Below are positions 321-63,986 of a DNA stretch of 64,000 nucleotides, in pieces. This DNA is from a virus. The notes under the pieces are model-generated. The model saw nothing but the letters and a program-made list of their open reading frames with translations. It had not been told where the DNA came from and did no database searches. The translations under genes and the position numbers were made by a program. How positions within the stretch are numbered: the stretch's first letter is position 1; every line of letters begins with the position of its first letter. The stretch lies in the IMG/VR virus record IMGVR_UViG_3300025009_000068, positions 25,433 through 89,432 of that record. One strand, written 5' to 3'.

Positions 321-1595
321 CTACCCCTGCCGCAAAACAATCTCCCCGGAAAGCGGAGCACCATTCCCCATCAAGGACTTCCCCCCGGAAAGCTCGACCA
401 GCTTTCTCAGCAATTCCGAAATCTCTCCAGCCTGCATCATGTCCATGGGAGGATCTTCACGATTAGCCGTTCTGCAGGGCACGTTTTTCGGGAATCCGCC
501 TTGAAGGGGAGGGGCTTGCCTGTTCCCTGCGCCATAACCGCCTTCGCCATATCCTTCACCGTCGGCACTCATGAGGCCCCTGCCCCTTCCAGGCATCATG
601 CCGCCGCCGCCATCCATTATTCCGCCGCCGCCCCCTCCCCCGCCCTTCCACCGCCCCATCTGCTCCATGGTCGCAGGATTTGGAACGATCATCCCGTCAG
701 CGGGCGCAACGAACTCTTCCGGCCCGGCTTCACCGACAATATACCGCTCTCCTTCCCGAACCGGCCCGCCGTATTCCTTGAACAGCCCTGAAATGTTATT
801 CCACATTCCCTGAAGCGACCCGCTCCCGCTCCCCGTGAGCTGATTCAATCCCTGCCCGAGCCCGTACATGCTCTGCGCTCCGTATCCGGCCGCCGTATTT
901 CCGAGGCTCGCGTACTGGCTCGCGGCATTTCCGGCGCCGGCCAGTGCCTGACCTTGAGTGTTCATGGCCATGTTCCCGACGTTACCGCTTGGAGAGGGAT
1001 AGGCCAGCCCGCGCTTGATCCCGGCTGCCTGGATGCGCCTCCCCCAACTCACCTCATCCGCCTTATCCCGAGCCGTCGTTCTCGCCCCGGCGGTCATGGC
1101 TGATTGCGCGAGGTCCTGCTGTCTTTGCGCGTCGGCAAACCTCCCGGAATTCGGGTTGATGCCATACCGGCCAAGGGCGCGCCCGGATTGCTCCCGGGTG
1201 TTGTCGAAGCCCTGTGCAACATCGGCCGCGGCCTGGCCCATGAGTGTGTCATACTTCGGCTCTTCCTGCGCCTGCACCATGATCTTGTGCTCCAGCGGAA
1301 GCTGGTCGCGCATGTATGCCCTGGCCACTTGCTTTTGCATGGGAAGGTAGGTATTCAAATAGTCTTTCGAGAGCTGCCTTTGAATGGGAAGCTCGAATTT
1401 CTTCCAGTAATCCCATTGCTCCCCGGACTGCTCCATCATTTGCATGATCAGGGCTGCCTGGGCCTCAGTAAGCTCCTGCGACGCCCCGTACATATCATCG
1501 GCCATTCCCATAGCCTTCTTGCCGTTGAGATAGCTGAAAACCGAGCTTCCTATGGTTGCCGCGCCACTTATTGCTCCACCCCAGTCAAAGGCCAT
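321..1595 (-). CDS. Putative internal virion (DNA pilot/ejection) protein
   Basis: Gly/Ala/Gln-rich; N-terminal WGGAISGAATIG helix; GRYGINPNSGRF motif; positioned after tail genes in a podovirus layout. Confidence 0.55.
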   Translation of the reverse strand: MAFDWGGAISGAATIGSSVFSYLNGKKAMGMADDMYGASQELTEAQAALIMQMMEQSGEQWDYWKKFELPIQRQLSKDYLNTYLPMQKQVARAYMRDQLPLEHKIMVQAQEEPKYDTLMGQAAADVAQGFDNTREQSGRALGRYGINPNSGRFADAQRQQDLAQSAMTAGARTTARDKADEVSWGRRIQAAGIKRGLAYPSPSGNVGNMAMNTQGQALAGAGNAASQYASLGNTAAGYGAQSMYGLGQGLNQLTGSGSGSLQGMWNNISGLFKEYGGPVREGERYIVGEAGPEEFVAPADGMIVPNPATMEQMGRWKGGGGGGGGIMDGGGGMMPGRGRGLMSADGEGYGEGGYGAGNRQAPPLQGGFPKNVPCRTANREDPPMDMMQAGEISELLRKLVELSGGKSLMGNGAPLSGEIVLRQG

Positions 1596-1661
1596 GAGCT
1601 TTCTCCCTTTTTATTCAAATAATGAGTCGGTCCGGTCAAGAATTGTTACCAGAAGGCTTTC

Positions 1662-2543
1662 TTACCAAGTAGATCCGCCATCACCCTCGTCACCGGCCCC
1701 CTGGCTGTTTCCAGCACCTATGCTTCCTTCCCCGAACCCACCCATGTCTCCGCTGAGTCCGCCATATCCCTCTCCATAACTCCCTCCACCGCCAAACCCG
1801 CTCACACCGGCAACGCCGGCCGCCCCGCCAAATCCTTCGCCAAGTCCGTACCCCCCGAGGTCCTCGCCGGCAATCGCGGGATCGAAACCAAATCCCATCT
1901 TATCGGCAAGCATCCCGACCATTCCAAGTATCCCCGAAACAGGGGTTCCTCCGAACACGCCGAAGCCCATTGGATCCATTGCGGCAATCGTGCTCGGCTT
2001 ATCGACGTTGGTTTTATCAAAGTCTTTTTGCTGCGAATATGAAGCGGCTTGGGATAATGCGCCAAAGCCTCCGAGGTTGGATAAGGCCCCGAACGCCCCC
2101 TGAAGCCCTGAATGAATGTCGCCAATAACCCCACCATAATCTTCCGCGCTATGATGCCCCGGAATCCCGGCATCAAGGTCCCCGTCAAGATCACCGGTTG
2201 CACCCGGCCCGGAAAGCCCTCCGCCAACCCCGGCACTAAAAGATAAGGGATCTATTTGCGCCCTACTTTGAGAAGCCACACCTCCGGAAGTGCCAACTCC
2301 ACCTCCAGATCCACCTCCAACTCCACCATCAGTACCCACTCCGCTCCACTGAGAAGCAGACCGATTCTGCACCAGCCCGATCCCGCCAGTCCTTCCGCCA
2401 CCCCCACCCGCCGCACCACCCGCCGCACCACCCGCCGCACCACCCTGCCCGGTCAGTCCGCCCATGAGCCCCGGCATTGGAGGAACCTCACTCGTGTACC
2501 GATTCATGAAGTCTGCTTGGAGATTCGGAATCGTAGTCGCCAT
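1662..2543 (-). CDS. Gly-rich putative virion/ejection protein
   Basis: 293-aa ORF co-oriented in the virion operon; very Gly-rich. Confidence 0.45.
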   Translation of the reverse strand: MATTIPNLQADFMNRYTSEVPPMPGLMGGLTGQGGAAGGAAGGAAGGGGGRTGGIGLVQNRSASQWSGVGTDGGVGGGSGGGVGTSGGVASQSRAQIDPLSFSAGVGGGLSGPGATGDLDGDLDAGIPGHHSAEDYGGVIGDIHSGLQGAFGALSNLGGFGALSQAASYSQQKDFDKTNVDKPSTIAAMDPMGFGVFGGTPVSGILGMVGMLADKMGFGFDPAIAGEDLGGYGLGEGFGGAAGVAGVSGFGGGGSYGEGYGGLSGDMGGFGEGSIGAGNSQGAGDEGDGGSTW

Positions 2544-2597
2544 GAAGGGGAATCCTTTCTTTTGTGGTGAAACTATAAAATTCAGGTCTCTTGAGCC

Positions 2598-3545
2598 TTA
2601 TTTAGCATCCGCAGTCTTCATCCCAAATCCGTCAACCTGGATCGTGAATCCAACATCGAGAAGCACGGCATCGCTTCCGTAAGTGTCGTCGCCATCCAGA
2701 GAATCCCGGAAGACCCTGAAAACTATCTTGGACCTGACCAGTATGCCGCTCCCGGAGACGGCGGCGAATGCTGCCCGCTCTGGCTGCCATGCGGTTCCGG
2801 ATGATGAAGAAACGACATCGATAGTCGTTGGAGCCGCGAAAGCCTCTCCGTCATTCTGCCAGGAATACTCGAGCTGCCATTTAACATCCCCGGCCCCGGC
2901 AACCGCCGGCATCCAGGAAACAAACGGGATGACATCCGACCCTTCCAAATATCTTCCGGGAAGGAGGATTTCTCCGTGAAGCTCCTCTAGCGCGCCGGCC
3001 CCGTCGAAGCCGACCCCTATGCAGCTCCCGGCCGCAAACACCGGAACGAGCCCGGCCGCTACCGCTGGTGCTATCGGGCCGGAAAGGGAAAGGCCGGACA
3101 CGGAAATGTCCTCGAAAGCTACGGCGCCCTCGGAGAGCTCCACGTTCCCTTCCTCGCCAATCATTACCCCTGGGATCACGTCAACGGCCCCGCTCTCCCT
3201 GTTTACGAAGAGGATCTTTCCGGCATTCTCGGTCCCGGTTTCAAACTCAACATCCTCTAAATCCAAGATCCTCATCTCGGACAATCTCTTGTCCGTGGAT
3301 TCCTTGGTGTAATACGTTTCTTCGTGGCCGTGATCGGTTTCGGCTTTCCCAGACAGTGCCTGGTTGACGGATTCAAGCGATTCAACAAACTCGGCATAGC
3401 TCTGGTACTTTTCACCGGAATCGGAGGCGCGGTCTCCAAACAGGATCTCGGCCCTCTCCTTCAAGGCTGTGAGGATGCGGCGAACATCGGGATCTATATT
3501 GAGCGGGATGTTTCCGATTGATTTTATCTTGGTGATTTTTGCCAT
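2598..3545 (-). CDS. Putative tail-associated virion protein
   Basis: 315 aa; N-terminal helical segment and beta-rich C-terminal domain; follows the tail nozzle gene. Confidence 0.45.
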   Translation of the reverse strand: MAKITKIKSIGNIPLNIDPDVRRILTALKERAEILFGDRASDSGEKYQSYAEFVESLESVNQALSGKAETDHGHEETYYTKESTDKRLSEMRILDLEDVEFETGTENAGKILFVNRESGAVDVIPGVMIGEEGNVELSEGAVAFEDISVSGLSLSGPIAPAVAAGLVPVFAAGSCIGVGFDGAGALEELHGEILLPGRYLEGSDVIPFVSWMPAVAGAGDVKWQLEYSWQNDGEAFAAPTTIDVVSSSSGTAWQPERAAFAAVSGSGILVRSKIVFRVFRDSLDGDDTYGSDAVLLDVGFTIQVDGFGMKTADAK

Positions 3546-3593
3546 GATTTATCGTTCTTCCCCTTCATCACTCCACTCCACTCCACTCCACTC

Positions 3594-6032
3594 CTACCCT
3601 CCAACCTGCACAAGCTCCTCGATGCTGGTAGCAAGACGAACTTCATCGACGTCGATATCGCTCACAATACTGATCTTCCCTTTCCTCCCCCGATACTTTC
3701 CGGGAAGGCGGAAGGGCGTGTTCGCTGAAACCATCTTCTGATACTTGAGCTTGAGCACGCTCCCGCCACGATCTGCCACAAACAGCCTGAAAAGCAACGT
3801 CGGGTCATCGGCCATCTCGACCGGAACATCTTTCAGCTTATCATCATTCACGGCCACGTCATTCATATCAAAAGCGTCTATGGACCCGCCCACCCCCTCA
3901 TCACTATCCATGAGCGCCTCATTCGCGGCAATGACGGCATCCCGGTACGCATCATAAGCGGCCCGCTTCGCCGCCGGCACCGGATCTCCATAGTCTGCAA
4001 CCACCTTCGCGGCCCCGAAGTTTACGAGCCCAGGAAACTCATGAACCTTACTTGTCCAAGTGCAGAGCATGTTTTGCGTCTCGTGGCCGTCGAGCTTCCG
4101 GATCACATAATTCCCCGAGATCTTCTGAACCACGTAAAGGAGACCTTCTTCATGGCTCAAGTATCCTGCAAGGGAATGATCAAGACGAATGAGCGTTCCC
4201 TCAGAGATTCCACCTCCAATAAGGAAACCTTCCCCGCTGTCTCCGCTGTCTCCGCTGCCAAGCCCGCCGGTCCCGCTCTGTATCATGTCAATATACACGG
4301 ATTTTATCAGGCTCGACCCGATGGCACGCATCCCTATCCCGTGGCTTCCAATCGATCCGGAGATCTCTCCTTCACCGAAATAGACCTCAATATTATCCGC
4401 TCTCCTGGCTTCCTGGTCGGCCATGAAATTCAGATCGAAATCATAATCATGGTATGCCACATAGTTCTGATTCAAAAAGAACGAAAGCATGGTCTCTGGC
4501 TGCATCATGCGCCACTCGCGCTCCCTGAAAATATCATTCGTTGCAACCCTTGCTCCCCCGGGCCCCACTACCAGAACCCCGTCAACCGTAGGGAAGAACA
4601 CCCCGCTTTCCGTTGTCACCATCCCGCGCTTCGAAAGGCACGGCTTCTGAATGGAGTTGTCGTCAAAGGCCATGGATGCCGGATCGAGACCGGTGTAGAG
4701 CAGGGTCTCCTTGTCGGTTCCGATCACGATGGTGTTTCCCGATGACCCGATTGCAACAATGGATGAATTGACCGTCTCCCGGTATCCGGACGGCCAAGCG
4801 TAGCACTTGTACGGCACGCACAGGCACAGCTCGTTCGAGTTTTCTCCCTGCCTGAATCCGGCCATGCCTCCTCCTGGAAGGGGGATGATGCCTATCAAGT
4901 CTTCGGGCGGAGGAAGGTAAGTGGACGTGGCAAGGACCTCCCCGAGGTCGGCCGACAAGATCACGTCCCTGTATGTGGTGTCAGCGACGTCGATTTCATC
5001 AACAAACTGATAGACCGCTGCCGACGACCCCGTGTTTACCCGATAGATCCTTCGCTTCGTTATGTGATGCTCTGCGCTCAGCGCAACGGATTCCTCGGCG
5101 TCGTTCTCGTAGGTGTCAACGAACCCCGAAACATCAACATACCGCTGCCATCCAGCTTCGATATCGTCGTCTTCCAGGTTGTTGGGATCCGGGTCGGACT
5201 CAGCCAGGCGGATAATGATGGAAGTCCCGGTCCATGCCCACTCGCCAACACGAAGCTCGCCGGCGACTCCATTCCGAAGATAAGCCGCCCCCTTCACGGA
5301 AACAGATGACGGAATGAGGTCGAGGGACCCGACAAACCGCCACTCATCAGTCCCGCTGGCAGTGGCCGCCCATAGCCCCGTTGTGGCATTCAGGCTTTCT
5401 TTTCTGTCTGTACCGGCCCAATGATCGATTATCCTCGAAGGAGGGGATTCCGCCCCTTCCTCGCCCCAACTGTTGACGTTGGTATAGACGTAGGCGATGG
5501 ATTGTTGCTCATCGGTAACGCGCTCTATTTTCTCGGGCTCTCCTCCAAGGCATATGGCGTGATATCCGACAGCCGACATGCCGATCCCGCCCTTAACGGA
5601 ATTCTTGTCTATCTTGTAGAGCATTTCCCGCTCGACGATGGGGGCCTTGTCCGGGCGCGGGACTCCAAGCCGGTAGGATGTGAGGCTTGTTGATGCCGCG
5701 GTGTGCCCCGTGATCATGGTGGAATCGAAAATGCGGGGAACGTCCATCCCGGTGACGTAGGTTCTATCGTCCACGTCGGCTAACGGGCTCTTCACCACGT
5801 TCACATCGGAAGTCCAATAGAGCCAGTACGGAGCGGAGCCGAATTTGTAAATGGAGAGCGGTGGAGAAGCAAGGGTGCCAAGGTTCAGGATATCGACATA
5901 GTTCCGGAGCGGCATGATCTTCCCGGAGTAAAGCTTGCAGTTCTTCGCATAGGTCGCCTGATTGTTGGCAAGGTCTTTCGGGGAGAGGCGCGGGACCTCG
6001 CCCGAGAATCCCTTGAACACGAGAGTTGCCAT
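3594..6032 (-). CDS. Tail tubular/nozzle (stabilization) protein
   Basis: Probable start MATLVFKGFSGEVPRL with AAGGAG RBS; YVYTNVNSWGEEGAESPPS and RRIYRVNTG motifs typical of podovirus tail nozzle proteins; about 812 aa. Confidence 0.7.
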   Translation of the reverse strand: MATLVFKGFSGEVPRLSPKDLANNQATYAKNCKLYSGKIMPLRNYVDILNLGTLASPPLSIYKFGSAPYWLYWTSDVNVVKSPLADVDDRTYVTGMDVPRIFDSTMITGHTAASTSLTSYRLGVPRPDKAPIVEREMLYKIDKNSVKGGIGMSAVGYHAICLGGEPEKIERVTDEQQSIAYVYTNVNSWGEEGAESPPSRIIDHWAGTDRKESLNATTGLWAATASGTDEWRFVGSLDLIPSSVSVKGAAYLRNGVAGELRVGEWAWTGTSIIIRLAESDPDPNNLEDDDIEAGWQRYVDVSGFVDTYENDAEESVALSAEHHITKRRIYRVNTGSSAAVYQFVDEIDVADTTYRDVILSADLGEVLATSTYLPPPEDLIGIIPLPGGGMAGFRQGENSNELCLCVPYKCYAWPSGYRETVNSSIVAIGSSGNTIVIGTDKETLLYTGLDPASMAFDDNSIQKPCLSKRGMVTTESGVFFPTVDGVLVVGPGGARVATNDIFREREWRMMQPETMLSFFLNQNYVAYHDYDFDLNFMADQEARRADNIEVYFGEGEISGSIGSHGIGMRAIGSSLIKSVYIDMIQSGTGGLGSGDSGDSGEGFLIGGGISEGTLIRLDHSLAGYLSHEEGLLYVVQKISGNYVIRKLDGHETQNMLCTWTSKVHEFPGLVNFGAAKVVADYGDPVPAAKRAAYDAYRDAVIAANEALMDSDEGVGGSIDAFDMNDVAVNDDKLKDVPVEMADDPTLLFRLFVADRGGSVLKLKYQKMVSANTPFRLPGKYRGRKGKISIVSDIDVDEVRLATSIEELVQVGG

Positions 6033-6060
6033 GAAGGTGGGTGCTCCTTCCTTCCAAGGA

Positions 6061-6098
6061 TTGATCCAGTCAAGAATTGATCCAGTCAAGAATTGATC
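6061..6098. repeat. 16-bp tandem repeat (TTGATCCAGTCAAGAA x2.4)
   Basis: Exact copies at 6061-6076 and 6077-6092, plus a partial copy; intergenic. Confidence 0.85.
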
Positions 6099-6138
6099 GA
6101 TCAAGGATTTATTGCGCTGAACTACCTCTTGCCTCGAG

Positions 6139-6699
6139 CTACTTCTTGATCACCCGAACATAGATGGTGAATGTCCCAAGGGTAATGGGCGCCCCGGTGT
6201 CGTTCCGCAGAATGTAATGAGCGGTGTTGGCCGATTCTATGTAGTAGCTCGGCTTCATGCCCTGAAGATCGACGCTTGCCGATGCGATCACGAAATCACC
6301 AAGCTCGGCCTCTGCTACTGCAATATCAACTCCGAGCTCGGCACCGCTTGCAATGGCTCCAGGCGTCCAGGACTTCGTTTCCACTTCAAGGCCCTGCAGG
6401 ATCGTGTCGAGGTCGGAAGCCGTGAGCCTGCCTTCGATCAATACGCCGGCCGCCCATGCCCTGGCTTCCGTGCCCTGCTGGCCCCTGGAAACCGTAAAGG
6501 TGTTGCTCGTCCTTGCGGTGCATTTCATGATCTCCCTGTTGCCATCCTCGTCTTCCAGGGTGATCCACATGATTTCGCCCGAGCCTATGGCATAGAACTT
6601 ACTTGCGTCTCCGGACTGGCATTGAAGGCTTGCCGCCGATCTCGTTATGGCGTTCAGAAGGGTGGATACCGCAAAGTTTTTGAATCGTGTCTTTGGCAT
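6139..6699 (-). CDS. Tail fibre N-terminal/attachment-type virion protein
   Basis: EIMKCTARTSNTFTVSRGQQGTEARAWAAG..EGRLTA motif common at the N-termini of phage tail fibres. Confidence 0.6.
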   Translation of the reverse strand: MPKTRFKNFAVSTLLNAITRSAASLQCQSGDASKFYAIGSGEIMWITLEDEDGNREIMKCTARTSNTFTVSRGQQGTEARAWAAGVLIEGRLTASDLDTILQGLEVETKSWTPGAIASGAELGVDIAVAEAELGDFVIASASVDLQGMKPSYYIESANTAHYILRNDTGAPITLGTFTIYVRVIKK

Positions 6700-6791
6700 T
6701 GAATGTTGTCCTTTGCTTTGAAGGGAGGGGCAGTAGTGGTTGTGGTGATGGTGTTGATGGTGAAATTAAAAATGATGGATCATGGTTTTCG

Positions 6792-7469
6792 TTACCACCG
6801 CATCATCTTGGCCTGCCTGGATCGCTTGACATGGCCCACATCGACGGTATGTCTCGCCATGGCTACCCCGTCTTGAAAGATCGTTTCGTAGTACACGGCA
6901 AGCTTGATGTCGCTCCAGTCTGCCTTTGGGATTTTCATGAGGCGTGAGATGGCTCCTGCTGCGATGGTTTCTAGCCAGTCATTGTAAACGACGTCTCCAA
7001 CCGCCGTGGCAACAGCCGACGGCTTGAGTGCGGCCTCAACCTCGATAATGTCTGCCGTCGCTTCGTCGGGAGGAACATAAAGCCTGATGGTTCCTTGAGT
7101 CTCGACAAGGTATTGCGTGGGTGTCCCGCTCTCCGCTGATTCCCAGTTCGGAAGGAGATGATCGAGGACCTCTCTAGCCGCGGCATCTATGTCGTTCCCG
7201 TCATACCTTACCTTCGTTGGAACCACGACCTCCGTTCCGGCATCCACGAGAAGCGTGTACGTCGGCTGATCCACGACCGAGGTGAGGGGGCCGAGCCAGT
7301 CACGCCATATCGTTGACATGCGGCAAAACTCACGACATGCGTTCCTTATGGCATTTAGAGCTATAACCACCGGACACCCAGGGACGTGCGGCAAGACTTC
7401 CGGAAGGAAGAGATCGAAGGATACCGACCCTATCGGAGTTACTGATGTTCCCGACCCTGTTCCGCCCAT
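6792..7469 (-). CDS. Head-to-tail adaptor protein
   Basis: FLPEVLPHVPGCP...AIRNACREFCRMS motif of podovirus adaptor proteins. Confidence 0.65.
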   Translation of the reverse strand: MGGTGSGTSVTPIGSVSFDLFLPEVLPHVPGCPVVIALNAIRNACREFCRMSTIWRDWLGPLTSVVDQPTYTLLVDAGTEVVVPTKVRYDGNDIDAAAREVLDHLLPNWESAESGTPTQYLVETQGTIRLYVPPDEATADIIEVEAALKPSAVATAVGDVVYNDWLETIAAGAISRLMKIPKADWSDIKLAVYYETIFQDGVAMARHTVDVGHVKRSRQAKMMRW

Positions 7470-7512
7470 TTATATACTATCCTCCATCTGCACTGGTTCA
7501 CATCCTCCCATT

Positions 7513-8109
7513 CTAAGAAACAACCTCGGTATCGGGATTCGGAGCGAAGTTGTACCCGCTCTTCTGCCGCCACACATAGACCGTTCCCGCGTCCAGGTTG
7601 AATGTAATTGTCCCGGTTTGGTCGGTTCTTCCGGATGCGACTACGTTGTTCCCGGCCTCGTCCGTTGAAATCCATACATCCACGTCTGCGATGGGAGCCC
7701 CGGAAACAGAGTTCGTGATGGTGTACGGCCAGGAGATAGCGCCGGACCCGGAGAGGTTTCCTCCGGTCGCCGCAAGGTTGAGCTTGGCGGCAACTGTCCC
7801 GGCTGTCGCACTCACACTCACGGCTGTCGTCAGTAGAGTTTGAGCCGCGAGAGCTACGTCCCCGGTGCCGATTGGCTTGTATGCTTCATCTGCCGCATCC
7901 GTGCCGGCGTAGCAATAGCCGACGTATTCCTTGGAGAGGTCGTATCCGGCATAGGTGTAGACGTACCACCCCGATCCCTTCTCGGTCATTGCCGCCGCAT
8001 TCACGACCACGGAGCCGTCGGAGATATCTCGCAGGGTGATTGTTGGAGACAGTCCCTCTAGGGGGACACCGGAACTTGTAAAGTATGCTCGGAAATCGTT
8101 GTATGCCAT
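7513..8109 (-). CDS. Virion protein with two Ig-like/carboxypeptidase-regulatory-like domains
   Basis: GAPIADVDVWI..SGRTDQTGTITFNLDAGTVYVWRQKSGYNF beta-sandwich signature. Confidence 0.5.
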   Translation of the reverse strand: MAYNDFRAYFTSSGVPLEGLSPTITLRDISDGSVVVNAAAMTEKGSGWYVYTYAGYDLSKEYVGYCYAGTDAADEAYKPIGTGDVALAAQTLLTTAVSVSATAGTVAAKLNLAATGGNLSGSGAISWPYTITNSVSGAPIADVDVWISTDEAGNNVVASGRTDQTGTITFNLDAGTVYVWRQKSGYNFAPNPDTEVVS

Positions 8110-8139
8110 AGTAGGTGCTTCCCCTCTCTTCCTCTATTT

Positions 8140-8859
8140 CTATTTATCCACTGCGCCAGACAACAAAACATCCACCGCTTTTCGCTCTCCGCTATCCCGC
8201 AAATGCACTGGCGCCCACATAGCCACACCCGCGCACCCGAGAGCCGTCACTCGCCTGATCTGAGCGGCCAAGTGCGGCAGCCAGCCGGTCTCGGTAATCC
8301 TGTAATCTTTGTGGACTGCAAGCCCGACCATAGTGCGCGACAAGTCCACCTGTGTTCTGTATCGCCGCAAAAATACCTGCATGGTGATTGGATCGCCCTC
8401 CTTAATGTAGAGTTCAGGGCTCACCCAATCGAACAGGTTGTAAAGCAATTTCACCGTCGGCGCATCCGTGAAGTCATGCAGGCAATATCCCGCCCAGGCG
8501 TGGAGCAGCATGTGAGGATATCTCTCCCGGTAGGCCGTGATTGCGGTCTTGATGGCCGTTCGTTGAACAGGAGTATACTTTCCAAGGCAGAATTCATCCA
8601 GGCTCAGACCGTCCACGGGATGCCCCTCCGTGGCCTCGATCATAGCTGCCAGGAGTGCGCCGTCAGTAGCCAGGAGGGTCGATACTTCTGGGACTGTGTG
8701 CAGGATGATCTTTCCTTTGTCGCGAAAGTGCTGCTTCTGCTCGGGCGTGGCATGAGCGATGCGAGAGCAGATGATCCCAGGAGAATCCATCTCAAGCTCG
8801 GTGCAGTCTGCCGGTAACATCCAGTGAGTCACCGGCCATGAATATGAAAGAATTGGCAT
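8140..8859 (-). CDS. Hypothetical protein, possibly a glycoside-hydrolase-like TIM barrel
   Basis: Probable start MPILSYSW; DGLSLDE, DWVSPELY and AGVAMW strand motifs. Confidence 0.35.
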   Translation of the reverse strand: MPILSYSWPVTHWMLPADCTELEMDSPGIICSRIAHATPEQKQHFRDKGKIILHTVPEVSTLLATDGALLAAMIEATEGHPVDGLSLDEFCLGKYTPVQRTAIKTAITAYRERYPHMLLHAWAGYCLHDFTDAPTVKLLYNLFDWVSPELYIKEGDPITMQVFLRRYRTQVDLSRTMVGLAVHKDYRITETGWLPHLAAQIRRVTALGCAGVAMWAPVHLRDSGERKAVDVLLSGAVDK

Positions 8860-8872
8860 GGAATATCCTTTC

Positions 8873-10165: not shown

Positions 10166-10176
10166 TATCTTCTCCC

Positions 10177-13287: not shown

Positions 13288-13363
13288 TGCACCTATCTCT
13301 GTTTTCATTCCCGTCATCACACCGCTGGCCTTTCTCTACACCACTAGCCCCACACCACTGGTC

Positions 13364-14044: not shown

Positions 14045-14092
14045 GGCAATGCTCCTTTGAAGGGTGGAGGGAATACTAAATTGAGATGCTCT

Positions 14093-14764: not shown

Positions 14765-14937
14765 GGTTGTGCTGTCCTGCCTTTCTCCCGCATTTTACGC
14801 TTCGATGTGGGGTGGTAGAAATGGTAGTGATGACGGTGAATGTGATGAATGCCTGGAAGAAAAGTGGCCACGTTTAGGTGGGGCCTGCCATCTCCCCTTC
14901 CAGGCCAATGCTTCGTCATGTCCTGAAATGCTGAATC

Positions 14938-15432: not shown

Positions 15433-15569
15433 GATTGATATACCTCCTTAAAGGTAGTTGGATGGTAGGATGGTGAAAATGATGAAAAATGAAGTATGCC
15501 TTGAATGGGAGGGGCACGGGTTGCTGCCTCCTCTCCTTCAAGGCATACTGTTCTCGATCCTGCGATCTC

Positions 15570-16505: not shown

Positions 16506-16663
16506 GAGAATATCTCCTTCTTGGGAAATGCGAAGCGTGCCATGCATGCTCTGCGGGAATGCTTTGCATGCTGGCGCGCTTGGATTATATGGAAGGACAG
16601 CGGCTCATCCTCTCGGGTTTATGAATTAGGTTGGCCTTGAAGGTGAGTGTGGTGAAACTGAAT

Positions 16664-47416: not shown

Positions 47417-47431
47417 AGAGGAGAATGCTCA

Positions 47432-48211: not shown

Positions 48212-48442
48212 TGGATGCGGACGACTACGACATCAAACCTTCAACACGTTCCATTAAGAAAGGCCAGCCATGGACCGACAAGGAAGACATGGAATTGACC
48301 GTCGCCTTCCTCGCCTTTCTGGATGATGCAGTGGGAAAGCATGGCCGCACGGAGTATGCCATCATCTCCAGGCTGGAGCGGCTCATGTCTTCCAAGGTCT
48401 ACGGATTCATCAAGACGCGACTTGAAGAAAGGAAAACCGAAA

Positions 48443-52554: not shown

Positions 52555-52646
52555 CGAAAAGTGTAATCACAAGCCTTGGGGGGAGGGTCCTCCAGATTCC
52601 ACCCTTCAAGGCAACCATGCTTTCCATTAAGAGTGGGGGTTTCGCT

Positions 52647-55701: not shown

Positions 55702-56413
55702 AGAGACCTGGATTCCAGTGTGGTGGTGCCAGGATTATGATGTATCGAATTTTGGAAGGGTGAGATCGAGAAAAAGGAAATTACCAATAATACTTTCTGC
55801 ATGTCCAAACCAGTGGGGCTATTTGCAAGTTGCCCTGTGTCAGAATGGCAAGGTAAAATGTTGCAGAATTCATGTTTTGGTTTTGGAAGCATTTGTATGC
55901 AAGCGACCCAGTGGCAAAAATGCTAATCATAAAGATGGAAATAAGAATAACAATTTTGATTTTAATCTTGAATGGGTAACTCATCAAGAAAATGTAATCC
56001 ATTCATATAAAACTGAGTTAAAGCATGGTCTGCGTGGAGAGAAAAGCGGAAGGAGTAAACTAAAAGATGGTGAAGTGTGGCTTATTAAGAAGCTATGGCT
56101 TTCTGGAATACCGTCAATACTAATAGGCAAGATGTTCAAAGTAACTCCTCATCATACGGCTAGAATAGGAAGAGATGAGTTGTGGGGAGACATTGACATA
56201 TCTTATGATGAAGTTTCGCCAGTTAAATACAAAACAGATGATTATGGAGAGCGTCACTTCAAGTCCAAATGGAAAGATGGTGAAGTTTGGCTCATAAAGA
56301 AACTGCTTAACGCCAATATTGATAGAAAGATTATACAAAAGATGTTTAATATGAAAAAATCCAATCTTTCTCACATAGCTGTTGGTATGACGTGGCGTCA
56401 TATTGAAGTGTGA
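55652..56413 (+). CDS. NUMOD4-HNH homing endonuclease
   Basis: YDVSNFGRVRS (NUMOD4); ANHKDGNKNNN..NLEWVTHQENVIH; two repeated C-terminal DNA-binding units; AT-rich; start uncertain. Confidence 0.85.
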   Translation: MQAIDLQILQEGSEVNKETWIPVWWCQDYDVSNFGRVRSRKRKLPIILSACPNQWGYLQVALCQNGKVKCCRIHVLVLEAFVCKRPSGKNANHKDGNKNNNFDFNLEWVTHQENVIHSYKTELKHGLRGEKSGRSKLKDGEVWLIKKLWLSGIPSILIGKMFKVTPHHTARIGRDELWGDIDISYDEVSPVKYKTDDYGERHFKSKWKDGEVWLIKKLLNANIDRKIIQKMFNMKKSNLSHIAVGMTWRHIEV

Positions 56414-56459
56414 TGTTGGGCTCGGTGAGTAGACAACCCAGCGATTCGGGAAAGATCCA

Positions 56460-56708
56460 ATGGGCTGGAAGTTTGTGTGCCCCTCCTGTGGCTACGTTGC
56501 CAGCGTTAAGGATTGGAAGGATGCCGGGGCATCAGACCGGGAAGCGGCTTTCTCCTGTGTGGGACGAGCGATGAATTCTGATAAGCAGATTTTCGATAAA
56601 ACGGGCGGGCCATGCAATTACGCCGGCGGGGGGCTCTTTGGGCTCAACCCGGTCACGGTTGATTTTGACGGAAAGGCCATTAAGGTTTTCGCGTTTGCGG
56701 AAGCCTAA
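56460..56708 (+). CDS. Cassette 1 gene: VVA0879-like Zn-binding protein (possibly 5'-truncated)
   Basis: WKFVCPSCG..FSCVGR..CNYAGGGLF; its stop TAA lies inside the R'' box of attC1. Confidence 0.6.
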   Translation: MGWKFVCPSCGYVASVKDWKDAGASDREAAFSCVGRAMNSDKQIFDKTGGPCNYAGGGLFGLNPVTVDFDGKAIKVFAFAEA

Positions 56709-56795
56709 CCCAGTAATGAACCAGACGGGTACCACGCCTTGGTTTTATGCAGTCGGCGGTGCTAGGGTGCCCGCTGGTTATCGCCAAAGTTAGGC
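56703..56795 (+). mobile_element. attC site 1
   Basis: R'' GCCTAAC ... R' GTTAGGC; inner arms ATGAACCAG-A-CGGGTACC / GGTGCCCG-CTGGTT-AT with extrahelical bases. Confidence 0.88.
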
Positions 56796-56813
56796 CGCGC
56801 GAGAGTAAAGTCA

Positions 56814-57665
56814 ATGCCAAGAGCACAGCAAATGTCGGTAGTACCATTGCAAAACGTGGTCGCTGAGTCCGTGGGTTTTATGCAGGCTCATGAACCATCT
56901 GAGGGGTATATGGTTTGCAATAGTTTCGGCAAAGACTCAGTTGTGCTCATGGAGTTGGTGAAAATGGCTGGAGTTAAATGCTTTCCGGTCCACAGCTTCA
57001 CCGGCATTGATCCACCTGAGGCGATCAAGTTCGGGCTCAAGACATACCCTGATACTCGTATTTACCGTCCCGTCATGTCTATGTGGGAAGGCATCAGAGC
57101 TAAGTTTCCTCCCGTTTTTAATAAGCGCTGGTGTTGCGACGTACTAAAGAAAGACCCAACGAAAGCTATCCCCTTGAAACACAAACTGGTTGGCATACGG
57201 GCCGAAGAGTCTCCAGGGAGGAAAGAGCGTGGGAGGATTTCAAGGTTTCGCGGCAAATGGCAGTATTCTCCCATTTTCGAGTGGCACGAATGGCACGTCT
57301 GGGAGTTCATCGAAGGTCTTGGCCTGCCATTTTGCGAACTGTATGACCAGGGCTTTGACCGGATCGGCTGAATGGTGTGCCCTTTAATCGTCTCGGTCGG
57401 GATGGGTAAGGTGAAGCAGCACAGGCAAAGGTGGCCCGGATGTTATCGGGTTTTTGAGCATGCGGTCACATGGTGGTTCTGGAACAAGGCTGGCGAAGAC
57501 AAGACTCGCTGGCCCACACCCAAAGCATACCTGGACGCATGGTACCGTGGATTCAAATCATCTAACAAGCGCATGCAGCCGGACACCGACCACGCGGGGG
57601 CAATTCAGTTGCGTCTCTTCGAGTCCTCGGCCCGCGTGATCGGTGCCGCTGATGCGCAGCGTTAG
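56814..57665 (+). CDS. Cassette 2 gene: PAPS/APS-reductase-family protein, probable selenoprotein (Sec at UGA 57369-57371), 283 aa
   Basis: SFGKDS PP-loop, RWCC..LKK, GIRAEES..R, PIFEW..VW and GFDRIG-[TGA]-MVCP; the next ORF continues in frame; SECIS-like hairpin follows. Confidence 0.8.
57382..57411 (+). promoter_or_regulatory. Bacterial SECIS-like hairpin
   Basis: CUUUAAUCGUCUC-[GGUC]-GGGAUGGGUAAGG; about a 13-bp stem with G-U pairs and one mismatch; loop begins 23 nt after the UGA. Confidence 0.7.
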
Positions 57666-57667
57666 AC
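57560..57667 (+). mobile_element. attC site 2
   Basis: ATCTAAC AAGCGCATGCAGC..CACCGA.CACGCGGG / CCCGCGTG.TCGGTG..GCTGATGCGC..GTTAGAC. Confidence 0.88.
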
Positions 57668-57682
57668 GGCGAGGAGGTGGTG

Positions 57683-57883
57683 ATGGTAACAGTGAGTTTC
57701 CCGGCGGGCGACAGAGGTATCTCGTGCTGCGCCTGCGGCGGAAAGGTTATCGTGACGCGCACCACATTGAGGTGCCGCAAGTGCGGAACAACCGCACCCA
57801 ACGCTTGGGTGCCAAAGGGGTCTAACCCAGCAATGAACCCGACGCCGGCCACGCGCGTGAGTCGTGCTACGGAAACCCGTTAA
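57683..57883 (+). CDS. Cassette 3 gene: small Zn-ribbon protein
   Basis: GGAGGT RBS; CCACGG...CRKCG; reads into attC3. Confidence 0.6.
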   Translation: MVTVSFPAGDRGISCCACGGKVIVTRTTLRCRKCGTTAPNAWVPKGSNPAMNPTPATRVSRATETR

Positions 57884-57912
57884 GGCCGGCGCGGGTTATC
57901 GCCACGTTAGGC
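57820..57912 (+). mobile_element. attC site 3
   Basis: GTCTAAC..ATGAACCCG-A-CGCCGGCC / GGCCGGCG-CGGGTT-AT..GTTAGGC. Confidence 0.9.
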
Positions 57913-57933
57913 CGCGAGGCCCGAGGAGACGGA

Positions 57934-58110
57934 ATGAAAATGAAAGCGTGGGGCTATGCCCATCTCTTGGTCGAGGCGGAATTCGAAGTAGATGAGACTG
58001 GATGCGAGCATACGGAGGCAATGAAAGCTTTGAACGAGGCGGCCAGGAAAGAATACGGCATATATCCGTCGCAATTCGAGTTTTCGGATGGGATTAATAT
58101 CACGGAGTAA
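57934..58110 (+). CDS. Cassette 4 gene: 58-aa acidic hypothetical protein (not in the ORF track)
   Basis: GAGGAG RBS; MKMKAWGYAHLLVEAEFEVDE...DGINITE*; stop is 3 nt before attC4. Confidence 0.65.
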   Translation: MKMKAWGYAHLLVEAEFEVDETGCEHTEAMKALNEAARKEYGIYPSQFEFSDGINITE

Positions 58111-58113
58111 ATG

Positions 58114-58206
58114 GCCTAACCCAGGGCTGGAGCCGAAGCGGGCCACGCGTGGTGCTACGGAAGTCCGTGGTACTACGGCCCGCTCGGCTCAGCCCCAATG
58201 TTATGC
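58114..58206 (+). mobile_element. attC site 4
   Basis: GCCTAAC..GGGCTGGAGCCGA-A-GCGGGCC / GGCCCGC-TCGGCTC-AGCCC..GTTATGC. Confidence 0.9.
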
Positions 58207-58223
58207 GGCGAAAGGGGGAGGTG

Positions 58224-58433
58224 ATGAAGTGTGGAGCTGTCAACGAGACGTTCCCGCACGTGGCCTGTGAGTTGGAGCCAGGGCACTCGGGGAGACACGG
58301 GGCTATTAGGCCCATGCGTGGCGGTGGTGAGGGGGTGTATTTATGGCATAACCCAGGGCTGCAGGCGACGGCGGAGGAAGCCCGAGACGTTGGTTCAGAG
58401 TCCTTGGCCGCCGCGCCTGAGCCCCAATGTTAG
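58224..58433 (+). CDS. Cassette 5 gene: small Cys/His metal-binding protein
   Basis: GGAGGT RBS; C..C.L..GH.G.H motif; reads through attC5 to the TAG in GTTAG. Confidence 0.6.
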   Translation: MKCGAVNETFPHVACELEPGHSGRHGAIRPMRGGGEGVYLWHNPGLQATAEEARDVGSESLAAAPEPQC

Positions 58434-58435
58434 GC
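58346..58435 (+). mobile_element. attC site 5
   Basis: GCATAAC..GGGCTGCAGGCG-A-CGGCGG / CCGCCG-CGCCTG-AGCCC..GTTAGGC. Confidence 0.9.
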
Positions 58436-58458
58436 CACTTGGGACAGGAGCTGGAAGA

Positions 58459-58842
58459 ATGACGAAAAATGAACGGGTGGATATGGTCAATCAGGCATTG
58501 GAGGCAATCGCTTCCAACGGCAGGCGGTTTTTTTATCATGAAAACCGAGTGTCCAAGATGGAGGTGGACGCTAGAGGGCGAGTCTGGTTTGTGGATTCGT
58601 ACTCACAACGGCGCATTTTCACGCATTGCCCATTCAGCCGATGGAGAGGATTCACAAATGGCGGCACACTCAAGGCTCTTGTTTGTCATTTTAGGGACTT
58701 CATCACAAAAGCAAAGCCGGTACCGGCCCATTGCTTTGGACCGTGGCCGGAATGGTATTGCGATGGGGATCTGTGGGGTTATGGTGAAGATATGGCGTTG
58801 GTTCGGAGTGCAGCCGTGAAGATTGGTATTGTGGCGTCGTGA
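58459..58842 (+). CDS. Hypothetical phage protein after the last attC
   Basis: AGGAG RBS; GRRFFY..GRVWFVD..WRGFTNGGTL..DLWGYG; no attC follows. Confidence 0.65.
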   Translation: MTKNERVDMVNQALEAIASNGRRFFYHENRVSKMEVDARGRVWFVDSYSQRRIFTHCPFSRWRGFTNGGTLKALVCHFRDFITKAKPVPAHCFGPWPEWYCDGDLWGYGEDMALVRSAAVKIGIVAS

Positions 58843-58899
58843 CCCTGTGTGGTGGAGCCGAAGCTGGCAACTTGAGAGTGCTACAATGATCCGTGGAAT

Positions 58900-58962
58900 G
58901 CCTTGAAGGGAAGGGCTTGCTTTTTTACGCCACCAACGCAAGCCCTCCCATCCCTTCAAGGC
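58900..58962. terminator. Long hairpin between convergent operons
   Basis: GCCTTGAAGGGA..AGGGCTTGC / GCAAGCCCT..TCCCTTCAAGGC. Confidence 0.6.
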
Positions 58963-58988: not shown

Positions 58989-59417
58989 TCAAACCACTCC
59001 CCACTCCACCAACTCTCTCTTGTACTTCTCCCCCTCGGCATGGATCAGCGCATGCATCCTGATCGCCCCGTCATTTCCTTCACCGAGCACACCCCGGTCG
59101 ATAACGAACTCATCGCCCTCATCGAGAATGCACACACTCCCCGTTCCACTGCTGTTCCTTTTCCGCCTATCCACAAATCTCCAGTCCTTCAAGCGAAGCC
59201 GGCAGCGCGCCCGAGCTGGAGCGATGAGTGTGCCGTCCGGATTCTTTTCCTCTTCGAAGTCGAGGTAGAGGTCTACGTGGCGTGGGAGGGGGTTGGAGTA
59301 GAGATTGAGGGGAGGGTTTGAGTTGGGGAGAGGGTTGGAGTTGGAATGTGAGGCAAGAGATGACGTGGATTGCCTTGAAGGGGAAGGGCTGTCTTTGGTG
59401 TTGCCGTAATCAGTCAT
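58989..59417 (-). CDS. Hypothetical protein
   Basis: AAGGAG RBS; 142 aa. Confidence 0.5.
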   Translation of the reverse strand: MTDYGNTKDSPSPSRQSTSSLASHSNSNPLPNSNPPLNLYSNPLPRHVDLYLDFEEEKNPDGTLIAPARARCRLRLKDWRFVDRRKRNSSGTGSVCILDEGDEFVIDRGVLGEGNDGAIRMHALIHAEGEKYKRELVEWGVV

Positions 59418-59433: not shown

Positions 59434-60162
59434 TCAAGGTTTCTTGTATTTCAACAGATCCTGTTTGATGACATAAGCTTTTCCGTGTTGCTCGCATAAG
59501 GCCACGGCATCTTCAAGAAACTTCCCCCAATCAATGGCGGCCGCCCGTTTGTCGTGGTTCCATTTTCCGATTTTGAACGTATCCACGTAGAGCATGGCGG
59601 CCTCCATAATCATCAGCGACTCGCTCGGCACAATGACTGGCTCGATACTGGCCCACGTCCGGATGTTTCTGGATTGAGCTCGGTAAAGCATTTCGATGCG
59701 ATTCATCGGAAGCGCGGCATTGGGCTCCCATTTCAGCGACAAGGCGCTACTGTAAAACGTGAGGGTAGCTCCAATCTGAGAGTTGGATGCCGACAAAAGA
59801 TCAAAATCGCGGCATGCTTCCATTCCTCCCTTGGTCAGAATGTTGACAGAGTTTCCATGGTCTGTGATGATTTTGATTGCGTCCCTTGTCCTCCAGTGCT
59901 CCGTGCCGATACAGTAGGGGTCGCACGAGAAGCACAAGAACACGGGTTCGGAAAGCTGGCCGACTCGCGTCATGTCCCGCTTCAATCGTTCAAGGACATC
60001 GGGGGCCGGGGTCACTTTCGAATGGAACTCTTTCCGACTCACGTAAAATGGAGCGTAGCAGTAGAGACAGCCATGAGTGCAGCCCTTGTAGAGATTAGCT
60101 GCATATCCATGGTCGGCATACTCACCGGCCCGGCCGGATGGCGTGTAAATTAAAGGCCTCAT
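59434..60162 (-). CDS. Radical SAM protein (spore-photoproduct-lyase-like family)
   Basis: NLYKGCTHGCLYCYA CxxxCxxC; DPY, ILTKG and WASIEP motifs. Confidence 0.85.
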   Translation of the reverse strand: MRPLIYTPSGRAGEYADHGYAANLYKGCTHGCLYCYAPFYVSRKEFHSKVTPAPDVLERLKRDMTRVGQLSEPVFLCFSCDPYCIGTEHWRTRDAIKIITDHGNSVNILTKGGMEACRDFDLLSASNSQIGATLTFYSSALSLKWEPNAALPMNRIEMLYRAQSRNIRTWASIEPVIVPSESLMIMEAAMLYVDTFKIGKWNHDKRAAAIDWGKFLEDAVALCEQHGKAYVIKQDLLKYKKP

Positions 60163-60324
60163 GATTTATTTTCCTCCCCTCACCTCCACCCTAATCCTCT
60201 GCAACCATCCACACACTCGAGCGGTCCACTTCCATCGATGCTCATGATGCTTGAAGTCGCTACATGTCCACGCCATTTTGAGGCGATGCTTTTTTGTCGG
60301 CATGATCGTGCCCCCCATTTTCCT

Positions 60325-60810
60325 TCAAGGATATTTCAAAAGCTTGGCGTCTCCCTTAACATACAATGGGTGCCATGGTGCTCCGTCTTTCGTGAGCTTC
60401 AAACATTTGATCTTTCCTTGTTCGCTCTCACGCCTCAATAATTCCATTACTTCCATGTCCCTATGCATATGTCTTCCGTGAGTGCCCCACGCAGCCACAA
60501 TCAACGCAACCTCTCTGGAATAAGCATCAACCCATGTATCATTTTCGGGGCCGACAGGGATGGGATGAGCTAACATGACCTTGGGGTCGGTAGCTCGAAC
60601 CGCAAACAGATTGCACATGACTATTCCGCCATATCCCCAGGATGCGGCAAACCGCATGCATCGCCTTATGGTGGGGTCGTCCTCGGTCTCGGTTGCAGTG
60701 GATGGATTAAGACCGATCCAAAGCATGCCAGGAAGACTGGTATTCCAAACCCTGGAAAGGGAATAGCGATACGTGCGGCATTTCGAGAATATGGCTGATT
60801 TTGTTATCAT
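60325..60810 (-). CDS. DUF1643 family protein
   Basis: CRTYRYSLSRVW..IGLNPSTA..DDPTIRR..NLFA.RATDP..AAWG..PWHPLY. Confidence 0.85.
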   Translation of the reverse strand: MITKSAIFSKCRTYRYSLSRVWNTSLPGMLWIGLNPSTATETEDDPTIRRCMRFAASWGYGGIVMCNLFAVRATDPKVMLAHPIPVGPENDTWVDAYSREVALIVAAWGTHGRHMHRDMEVMELLRRESEQGKIKCLKLTKDGAPWHPLYVKGDAKLLKYP

Positions 60811-61950: not shown

Positions 61951-61953
61951 CTA

Positions 61954-62475
61954 TCAGTCAGCAACCCGAACCAGGTGTCCCTTGGCTCCAGGTGCATCTC
62001 CCGGTAATCGCTTTACTACAAGAAATGGATCACCGTGCTTTTTGACTCTTTGATAGTGCTTCATGCACAAGCCAAGACCCTTGACTGGAGAATCGCAATA
62101 CTCACAAGTCCTGTTTGCGTTCTTGGATAGCCATTCTGCATGATGAGCCTTTACGTGACATGACATGCAAAGGGTAATCAAATTTCTGATGTCGTTGTTT
62201 AGTGGATCGTGGTCTTTGTGGTGGACTTGGAGGTACTCATTCCCGCCGCATTGTTCACATTCTGTTTTGGCAAATTTTGCAGATCGTGCTCGGCTTGTTT
62301 GTTCATTCAAAACCCTTATGCCTCTTATGGATAATCCAGAGCATGTCAGGTCACAAAATCGTCTTGCCATGAATCGCGTGAAATCTTCACGCCTTCCATT
62401 GTAATACTTTCTCTCCATTTTCTTTCCGCATTGCTCACAATATTTCGACGGACCTTCCTTGACGTGCTGAGGCAT
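61954..62475 (-). CDS. HNH endonuclease with Zn-finger motifs
   Basis: CEQCG; LQVHHKDHDPLNNDIRNLITLCMSCHVKAH; GLCMKHYQR. Confidence 0.8.
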   Translation of the reverse strand: MPQHVKEGPSKYCEQCGKKMERKYYNGRREDFTRFMARRFCDLTCSGLSIRGIRVLNEQTSRARSAKFAKTECEQCGGNEYLQVHHKDHDPLNNDIRNLITLCMSCHVKAHHAEWLSKNANRTCEYCDSPVKGLGLCMKHYQRVKKHGDPFLVVKRLPGDAPGAKGHLVRVAD

Positions 62476-63407
62476 GGTATCCCCCAATAAAAAAGCGCCA
62501 GGGGGTACCGGACCAACAACGGCCCCCGCATACCTTACGATATGCGGTTCCCTGACGCTAACTGAATGTCTTGAAACAAAAATAGCCATTACGGAGGCTC
62601 CCGGTTGTTGTTTGGTTTGGAGAGTATGCCTCAAATCAAGTATGAATGCAAGAAAAACACTTCGGTGGTTGACCTGTCATCGGCTACCTTGGTTTCGTCA
62701 ACAACATCCTTGGACGTCCTCATCCTCGTTCCCTCCGCCATTCCCCATTTATCCACGTCCCTCCTCTCCACCCAAAGCCTCCCATCCCCAATTCACAAGA
62801 GCCATAAGCCCCGCCATTGCCCCGCCGCAGATTATGCCGACCGCCGCACAGGTCCAAAAGAGTTGCCATCCTTGAAGATCGAGAAGTGATTGCATGGTTT
62901 GTATCCCTTCCTACTAGATATCCATCTCTACTAGACATCCCTCCCTGCCGGATAAAGAGAAAGAAGAGAAATGATTAAAGCGGCTCCAGCATTCGGCGCG
63001 GTACACGACACCCTTCAGACCTATGCGCCGGTCGCTCTTGCGGAGTGGTGCTCTCGGAGCCGCTGATTGGATTGCTGCGTCATGCCGATCGGTTCCGCCG
63101 CCGGGACTCACGACCGATGTCTCGAAGGCGACGGCGCTTCGTGATGGCGTTGGCTTGTCTGCCACGGTTGGCGTCGGCGCGGGATACTCCCCGATTACTA
63201 AACCAACTCCGCTGCTCGGGGCGCACCGACCCATGAAACATATTGAATATGCTCATAACGGAGCTACGCAACAATGATCCATGTTCTCTTCTAACCAAGG
63301 TTGGCGAGTCATAGAATATCTTTTCTTTGGTATCAAGTGCTGCTTGGTGAGTCGGTCGATTCACGATTCTACCCCTTCCTTGTTCTTCTCGTTACTTGCT
63401 CTTCTCG

Positions 63408-63986
63408 TTACTTGCCATCATCGCCGCCCATCGCCTCCCCATCCATCGGCACCTTCCCACCCTCCACCACCTTCTTCCGTCTTCTCTCCTCCTGAAACGC
63501 CTTCAGATTCTCAGGCACACCCCTCGCTTTCGCAGCCTCGGACCTCGCCGCGGACAACGACTTGGCCATGAGGGAAGTTTTCAGCCTCATCCCGTGCTTC
63601 TGCTTGTACTCTTTGGGAGAGAGGCCGTGAAGAAAGAGGTGCTTCTGCGTGAGCTGCTTGAACTCTTTCCCGCATTCCAGGCAGATTACCTTGTCTTCCT
63701 GGATGGAGTCGGCAGGGGAGATAGTTGGGGAGATGGCGGGGAAAGCAGAGTTGGGAGTGGAGAGAGAGGCGTCAAAATCTTCCCCTTCAAGGCCTTCTTT
63801 TCCGAGCTTGTCCTTGAAGGATGGATGGAAGCCGGGAAAGAAAAGAGAGATCCCGCCACCATCTCTTCTGCTCACGGAAAGTTCTTCCATCTCCCTCTTC
63901 CTCATTCCGAGAAGGGTGGAGAACGCCCCTTCGAGATAGCCCTGGATCTCCTCGACCGTCATCCCGCGCTGCACCGCCTGGCTCAT
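63408..63986 (-). CDS. Ros/MucR-family transcriptional regulator (N-terminus may extend past the window)
   Basis: SIQEDKVICLECGKEFKQLTQKHL..HGLSPKEYKQKHG. Confidence 0.8.
   Translation of the reverse strand: MSQAVQRGMTVEEIQGYLEGAFSTLLGMRKREMEELSVSRRDGGGISLFFPGFHPSFKDKLGKEGLEGEDFDASLSTPNSAFPAISPTISPADSIQEDKVICLECGKEFKQLTQKHLFLHGLSPKEYKQKHGMRLKTSLMAKSLSAARSEAAKARGVPENLKAFQEERRRKKVVEGGKVPMDGEAMGGDDGK

Follow-up and report, generated by a model that had tools for sequence, protein, structure and literature searches.

An oriented, uptake-sequence-like word that appears to be under purifying selection in a groundwater phage lineage

Why should a phage repeat one short, near-palindromic word dozens of times over its genome? 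The question is posed by CCTTSAAGG (S, C or G) in IMG/VR record IMGVR_UViG_3300025009_000068, the 89,432-bp single-contig genome of a groundwater phage (G000; 54.6% GC), of which bases 25433–89432, a stretch of 64,000 nucleotides, form the window; coordinates below are those of the window unless the genome is named. A pattern search finds 27 exact copies there, whereas dinucleotide-preserving shuffles hold 0.98 on average and 4 at most, and genome-wide there are 37 copies for 3.96 expected under an order-3 Markov model, an excess of about 9-fold (Markov) to 27-fold (shuffle). Every one of the 27 stands at the start listed in a preliminary description of this DNA, and the one-mismatch copies named there exist too (CCTTGAAAG at 25311, 25320 and 31584). 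No other 9-mer of the phage genome is as over-represented as GCCTTGAAG and CCTTCAAGG, and GGAASTTCC, the word reversed without being complemented, stays at background level. A tenfold excess of a near-palindromic 9-mer opposes the general trend of this genome, because 6-bp palindromes have been purged from it: seven are strongly depleted genome-wide (observed/expected: AGTACT 0/8, CAGCTG 0/9.5, CGTACG 0/5.5, TTTAAA 0/6.1, GTGCAC 1/8.3, GTCGAC 2/16.4 and CGATCG 4/20.5), which is a signature of restriction avoidance.

Does the word reflect the proteins that the phage encodes, or is it kept as DNA? A simple, home-made codon-usage model called 88 genes, covering 84% of the genome, and by these calls the 37 copies divide into 12 sense, 11 antisense and 14 intergenic ones, so that 62% lie in genes. 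When synonymous codons were shuffled within each gene and the proteins kept, 4.0±1.9 in-gene copies were expected (maximum 9–10) against the 23 observed, a 5.7-fold excess; shuffling the order of codons gave 1.9±1.3. A codon-aware null model had been named in the preliminary description as the test that might refute the enrichment, and under it the enrichment persists. Peptide contexts able to encode the word number 67, and the word is used in 23 of them. Contexts of the form xLKx are written xCC-TTG-AAG-G in 8 of 18 cases, though TTG makes up just 16% of Leu codons, and two of the six PSR contexts use the rare codons CCT-TCA-AGG. The synonymous shuffle and the usage of peptide contexts together rule out a codon or peptide artefact, and since the word exceeds a codon-aware null in genes, selection acts on DNA.

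Solitary in-gene copies occur in all usable frames and both directions, use rare codons, and lie in weakly constrained, fast-evolving linkers; RNA structure around in-gene copies is no greater than at control positions. Sense copies yield the peptides ALKE/ALKG or LEG, and antisense copies yield LQG, FK or PSR; in the latter group the flank of the word reads as CCN codons, which puts a Pro/Ser/Thr-rich linker in front of these peptides. Intergenic DNA, about 16% of the genome, holds 14 of the 37 copies (38%; P 0.0009), which bears out the intergenic clustering reported earlier. The two orientations are interleaved along the genome, 20 to 17, and the orientation of the word bears no relation to gene direction or transcription.

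An orientation can be assigned to a near-palindrome by its central base, and we aligned all copies on the strand carrying G at the centre. The base at −1 is then G in 27 of 37 copies, and the base at +1 is C in none. Over the six bases 3′ of the core, C occupies 3 of 222 positions; the 3′ hexamer is free of C in 34 of 37 copies, compared with 38–44% of other GAAGG contexts (P 5e-11). The one-mismatch neighbours CCTCGAAGG and CCTGGAAGG share the same purine-rich flank and each occur 13 times in genes where the synonymous null predicts 3.1 and 3.6 (about 4-fold), whereas the mirror-image variant CCTTGGAGG is not enriched in genes under that null (2 against 3.2 expected). Position 4 thus accepts C or G and its mirror, position 6, accepts no change. 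From the G at −1, the C-free 3′ flank and the one-sided variants, we read the unit as G-CCT[T>C,G]GAAGG-DDRRRR. The conserved unit is an oriented word of about 16 bases, palindromic only in its 9-mer core. About ten copies reach a long form of 22 nt, GCCTTGAAGG-G(1–4)-(A)AGGGCTTG, the 22-bp form being GCCTTGAAGGGGAAGGGCTTGC. Two other explanations of this sequence context were tried and dropped: a −35-like TTGAAG promoter, for which the sequence logo shows no −10 element at the right distance, and a long-range skew 'sawtooth' at the sites, which shrinks to about 140 nt of locally G-rich sequence, with a weaker form at ordinary GAAGG sites.

This anatomy bears directly on the idea that a symmetric dimeric regulator (ribbon–helix–helix, helix–turn–helix or MucR-like) uses the 9-bp palindrome as its operator. 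The label 'palindrome' in the preliminary description holds for the core and fails for the conserved unit, which is oriented in its flanks and variants, and the site for a dimeric protein that it suggested is disfavoured, because the central base predicts the flanks and position 4 is tolerant where position 6 is not. A 4-1-4 core would suit such an operator, as would the copies that sit 5–30 nt upstream of gene starts, and the phage encodes candidate regulators: weak HTH_17 proteins and a Ros/MucR-family zinc-finger protein (63408–63986 (−); PF05443, E 4e-24), whose gene carries the word twice in its N-terminal part, at a spacing of 28 nt, and for which a protein atlas search found nothing. 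Set against these are the asymmetric flanks and tolerated variants, the location of most copies in genes without relation to gene direction, and the preference of Ros/MucR proteins for AT-rich DNA. We consider a dimer operator the least probable of the explanations weighed here, and a poor one. Dispersed operators of another kind are known in phages: the stoperators of cluster A mycobacteriophages and the C1 operators of phage P1 are tens of asymmetric 13–17-bp sites read by one phage protein. The word resembles them as tens of asymmetric sites spread over a phage genome; unlike them, mostly intergenic and oriented with transcription, it lies in genes in 62% of cases and is oriented at random to genes.

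Is the word conserved? One close relative was found in IMG/VR through its terminase-like protein (83% amino-acid identity). This genome, G001 (85,285 bp), is collinear with G000 in circular permutation and matches it at about 90% of nucleotides over 54 kb. It carries 32 copies of CCTTSAAGG and none of the reversed control, and 19 of the 24 alignable copies of G000 are intact in it. Pooled over both directions, differences between the two genomes affect 20 of 468 motif bases as against 172 of 1040 bases in the 10+10-nt flanks (Fisher P 1e-12), with a genome average of 9.5%. Five of the 14 site differences interconvert CCTTGAAGG and the enriched variants CCTCGAAGG and CCTGGAAGG, as expected if a reader treats position 4 as degenerate. 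Judged from this one pairwise comparison of two related genomes, the word appears to be under purifying selection amid fast-evolving surroundings. Segments that do not align between the genomes hold 13 copies in about 35 kb, a similar density. Identity also steps between blocks, for example from 88% to 98.8% at genome 42.0–42.1 kb, pointing to a mosaic history; that the copies mark mosaic or recombination junctions of the two genomes was examined and rejected, as there is no excess identity step at the sites (P 0.2–0.6).

The differences between the genomes also allow a model that needs no reader to be weighed. In Elhai's model for HIP1, the highly iterated palindrome of cyanobacteria (GCGATCGC), a methyltransferase and short-patch mismatch repair together would renew the word by biased repair. 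In its favour, the commonest site difference is T↔C at the CpG/TpG step (CCTTGAAGG↔CCTCGAAGG), highly iterated palindromes (HIPs) are tied to cognate methyltransferases (PMC4390886), and a Rossmann domain encoded by the phage has the NPPF motif typical of amino-methyltransferases. Enzymes of the NPPF type, however, methylate exocyclic amino groups and not cytosine C5, so that T:G mismatches driven by deamination do not follow from their action; a scan of about 70 proteins showed no Vsr-like gene; an asymmetric word with a 6-nt flank is unlike a Type II target; the copies are conserved rather than replenished; and other palindromes have been purged from the genome. We therefore find biased repair improbable. 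The word does resemble HIP1 and the alternate cyanobacterial HIPs: it is hyper-abundant as DNA, is conserved from one relative to the other, and lies both inside and between genes. For HIP1, too, conservation points to selection and the reader is not known (PMC5861425). Unlike the HIPs, perfect even-length palindromes of cellular genomes, it is asymmetric and found in one phage lineage. The HIP1-like reading of the preliminary description accordingly stands for hyper-abundance, action at the DNA level and conservation between relatives; a tie to methylation or repair could not be demonstrated.

What, then, is the word for? We propose, with a probability of roughly 0.45, that the oriented word of about 16 bases is a recognition tag, kept by selection on DNA, for an asymmetric DNA-binding or DNA-processing protein, its putative reader. 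CCTTSAAGG would be the core of this tag, maintained by selection on DNA and not on proteins or mRNA, and the reader would be of the monomer type and probably act on the genome irrespective of transcription. Its working logic may be that of uptake sequences, Chi and other genome tags. The closest likeness is to the DNA uptake sequences (DUS) of Neisseria (GCCGTCTGAA) and the uptake signal sequences (USS) of Haemophilus (AAGTGCGGT with a one-sided flank). As in these, whose core measures 9–12 nt, an oriented core is joined to a weaker flank on one side only, neither orientation is the commoner, genes hold copies in several frames with a preference for their weakly constrained parts, and the density is of the order of one per 1–2.5 kb. 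Unlike DUS and USS, the word sits in a phage and has no known host genome carrying it and no link to competence, its core is near-palindromic, and only about five hairpins were seen. By analogy, its anatomy seems to match that of uptake sequences better than that of a symmetric-dimer operator or HIP1.

DUS occur either solitary or as inverted repeats in terminators (PMC3898611), and the phage word likewise occurs solitary or as inverted pairs at gene ends. An inverted partner lies within 130 nt of 11 of the 37 copies, as against 5% of random positions, and the inverted pairs build the stems of the few long intergenic hairpins. The first, with a stem of about 21 bp, directly follows the major-capsid gene (15496–15546 (−); ATGCCTTGAAGGAGAGGAGGCA ... 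TGCCCCTCCCATTCAAGGCAT, then a T-rich tail; −42 kcal/mol); it combines an exact copy at 15535–15543 with a one-mismatch partner, and in G001 both of its arms are exact copies. Two more lie between convergent genes: 34869–34917 (unstranded; GCCTTAAGGGAAAGGGG ... CCTCCTCACCTTCAAGGC), flanked by A-runs and T-runs and with an exact copy at 34908–34916, and 58900–58962 (unstranded; GCCTTGAAGGGAAGGGCTTGC, 17 nt, GCAAGCCCTCCCATCCCTTCAAGGC; −38 kcal/mol), with exact copies at 58901 and 58953. If the word is a tag, its use in hairpins at the ends of transcription units would be a side benefit, as for DUS.

The same hairpins could instead be the functional form, spreading as a terminator or hairpin module in the manner of repetitive extragenic palindromes (REP) and the REPINs they form, with the solitary in-gene copies being decayed or captured halves. 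The 11 partnered copies agree with this, as do the long hairpins behind the capsid gene and at convergent gene ends, and copies do arise by copying, as seen from a tandem duplication at 40098–40139 and from stretches identical at 24 of 28 nt around the copies at 499 and 22850. Yet 62% of the exact copies lie in genes, at 5.7-fold over the codon-aware null, and conservation extends to the solitary ones; RNA structure at in-gene copies does not exceed that of controls; and no RAYT/Y1 transposase was found among the roughly 70 proteins scanned. REP/REPIN elements are extragenic hairpin doublets accompanied by a RAYT transposase, unlike the phage word with most of its copies in genes. A spreading hairpin module thus has little to recommend it in our judgement.

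Who else carries the word? Further close terminases exist (P0002, 89% identity, on 30.9 kb; P0003, 83%, whose cluster includes a 140.6-kb contig). The word is absent from relatives at 60% terminase identity or below, and a metagenome scan returned only relatives at 45% identity or less. Iterated words in the distant terminase relatives L006, L010 and L013 were rejected as analogues, being coding tandem repeats. Four pair-pattern scans of 2.9 million viral contigs revealed no other carrier of the word; the proviruses G312 and G313 have 6–7 copies each, without the flank signature. The sequencing runs that contain the phage are groundwater and soil metagenomes only and give no hint of the host. 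Distant terminase homologues are located in metagenome-assembled genomes of Desulfobacterales, and among 301 sampled Desulfobacterota genomes the maximum was nine copies of GCCTTGAAGGGG per genome. A pair-pattern scan of bacterial genomes gave at least 120 loci, none of them enriched among the matches listed, ten whole genomes reached through chance pair matches have the word at background, and a literature search did not find the literal word.

These searches bear on whether the phage borrowed the word. It may be the host's own iterated word (an uptake sequence, or of Chi or HIP type), carried through long residence and recombination in the host's gene pool, or to exploit host machinery. Its anatomy is that of DUS and USS, its similar density where G000 and G001 cannot be aligned suggests that word-carrying DNA exists in a wider pool, and blocks free of the word look imported. 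Exact copies are absent from 3467–15534 (tail genes; Poisson P 0.006), from 40136–49113 (with the primase-like gene inside; P 0.02) and from 54347–58900 (the cassettes; P 0.15), so that the word-free zones given in the preliminary description hold; that the word marks off long-resident from acquired DNA is plausible, resting on two gaps chosen post hoc. Phages can also be enriched for the host's Chi, an enrichment seen in lambdoid phages that lack Rec modules (PMC12315714), and the word resembles Chi in phages in being oriented, rich in G and maintained at high abundance, presumably to serve some DNA transaction. Against a host word are the absence of any enriched genome among the listed bacterial loci, the ten whole genomes and the 301 Desulfobacterota, the lack of another viral carrier in the four scans of viral contigs, and the two contigs themselves, which are circular permutations without host flanks. 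Chi in particular fits badly: this phage, unlike the Chi-rich lambdoid phages, has an SbcC-like ATPase, an exonuclease and a RecD2-like helicase, and the word, at 10–16 nt, is long for a Chi, a host word of 5–8 nt that clusters terminally in phage LLS, whereas the phage word is evenly spread. A host word is, on this evidence, unlikely.

Between a word private to the phage and one shared with its host, the balance tips slightly towards the private. A more specific version, a 'self' tag that phage machinery reads so as to act on phage rather than host DNA, and that would stay dense despite the purge of palindromes under restriction pressure, seems to us quite unlikely. Candidate readers of such a tag are an injected polyvalent ParB–methyltransferase–helicase protein and a phage nuclease or nickase. 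The polyvalent protein (4,576 amino acids; genome 9001–22731 (−), upstream of the window) has six copies of the word in its gene and combines InPase, ParB_N, a Rossmann methyltransferase-like domain with NPPF at residue 1696, a Strawberry-notch helicase, ADP-ribosyltransferase and LPD38, an architecture resembling DarB; for its NPPF methyltransferase-like domain no solved relative was found. Two HNH endonucleases (55652–56413 (+) and 61954–62634 (−)), one with NUMOD4, could be homing or nicking enzymes.

Several observations count against a recognition tag. None of the encoded candidates can be tied to the word. Its carriers are two related genomes only, so that the argument for selection rests on a single pairwise comparison, and a high density in the host is, for a tag of uptake or Chi type, so far a central prediction. 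The purine-rich flank could come in part from protein linkers that tolerate the word and not from recognition. As to the hairpins, a clear T-run is present at one only, and the hairpin behind the capsid gene was not called by a simple terminator scan, whose limits its stem and loop exceed.

The individual copies in the window illustrate how the word is fitted into genes. Several sense copies encode ALK peptides: 3458–3466 (−) in gene 2598–3545 (−) reads LTALKERA, 23232–23240 (−) in the portal gene (22723–25185 (−)) reads DHALKGDV and is lost in G001, 30212–30220 (−) in gene 29829–31238 (−) reads REALKGEG, 37636–37644 (−) in gene 37610–37882 (−) reads GYALKETD, and 54338–54346 (+) in the RecD2-like helicase gene (53425–55701 (+)) reads SDALKEEA. 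The last of these is CCTCGAAGG in G001, as is the copy at 49114–49122 (+), which encodes VKRLEGVK in the SbcC-like ATPase gene (48443–50278 (+)); KEGLEGED is encoded at 63784–63792 (−) in the Ros/MucR-family gene. That gene also holds an antisense copy, 63812–63820 (+), over HPSFKDKL, again CCTCGAAGG in G001. The other antisense copies are 22368–22376 (+) in gene 21913–22425 (−) (IPPFKAIL), where G001 retains the word with diverged flanks; 25036–25044 (+) in the portal gene (LPPSRLLS, with the rare codons CCT-TCA-AGG); 50212–50220 (−) in the SbcC-like ATPase gene (PPSLQGSE); 59373–59381 (+) in gene 58989–59417 (−) (PSPSRQST); and a related pair. In this pair, 499–507 (+) lies in gene 321–1595 (−) over APPLQGGF, has the long form GCCTTGAAGGGGAGGGGCTTGC and is kept in G001, and 22850–22858 (+) lies in the portal gene over SPPLQGGN; the surrounding stretches, 499–526 and 22845–22872, have 24 of 28 nt in common in two unrelated genes, for a 424-amino-acid virion-module protein and the portal, and both encode (A/S)PPLQGG near the C-terminus.

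Two solitary intergenic copies frame gene 16664–18373 (−), 16635–16643 (+) at 20 nt past its stop and 18392–18400 (+) at 18 nt upstream of its start. The copy at 25258–25266 (−), between the terminase-like and portal genes, could pair with the tandem near-copies at 25311 and 25320. Upstream of gene 29829–31238 (−), 31259–31267 (−) stands 20 nt from the start, and 31370–31378 (+) lies in the divergent intergenic region 31239–32082; 52603–52611 (−) is 5 nt upstream of the ATG at 52617 (+), and 60322–60330 (−) abuts the stop end of an open reading frame (ORF) for a DUF1643 protein (60325–60810 (−)). The copies at 40106 and 40127 (+) belong to an exact 21-nt (7-codon) tandem duplication, in the 5′ part of ORF 39140–40414 (−) or just upstream of its shorter start, and copies can therefore arise through local duplication. 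A second over-represented family in the genome, GGGCATCCCTCAAC, was set aside as merely a 15-bp coding tandem repeat: at 47569–47930, in gene 47432–48211 (+), about 24 such units (GGGCATCCCTCAACG and variants) encode a pentapeptide-repeat protein (Pfam PF00805, E 7e-24), which could be a DNA mimic. The window further encodes a DenV-like pyrimidine-dimer glycosylase (36640–37011 (−)), a nucleoside 2-deoxyribosyltransferase-like protein (38684–39124 (−)) and a weak radical-SAM protein (59434–60162 (−)).

To our knowledge, nearly all iterated genome words described, HIP1, DUS/USS and Chi among them, come from cellular genomes, and a phage that carries one carries the word of its host. In the present case an uptake-sequence-like word seems to be under purifying selection in a phage lineage, with no other carrier among the viral contigs and bacterial genomes searched. 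It may also serve as a practical marker telling long-resident modules from recently imported ones, plausible on the two post-hoc gaps described above. If the word is the host's, it would give a direct handle on the host of an uncultured groundwater phage. If it is private to the phage, it would point to an undescribed sequence-specific DNA transaction in phages, with a small, tractable genome in which to find the reader.

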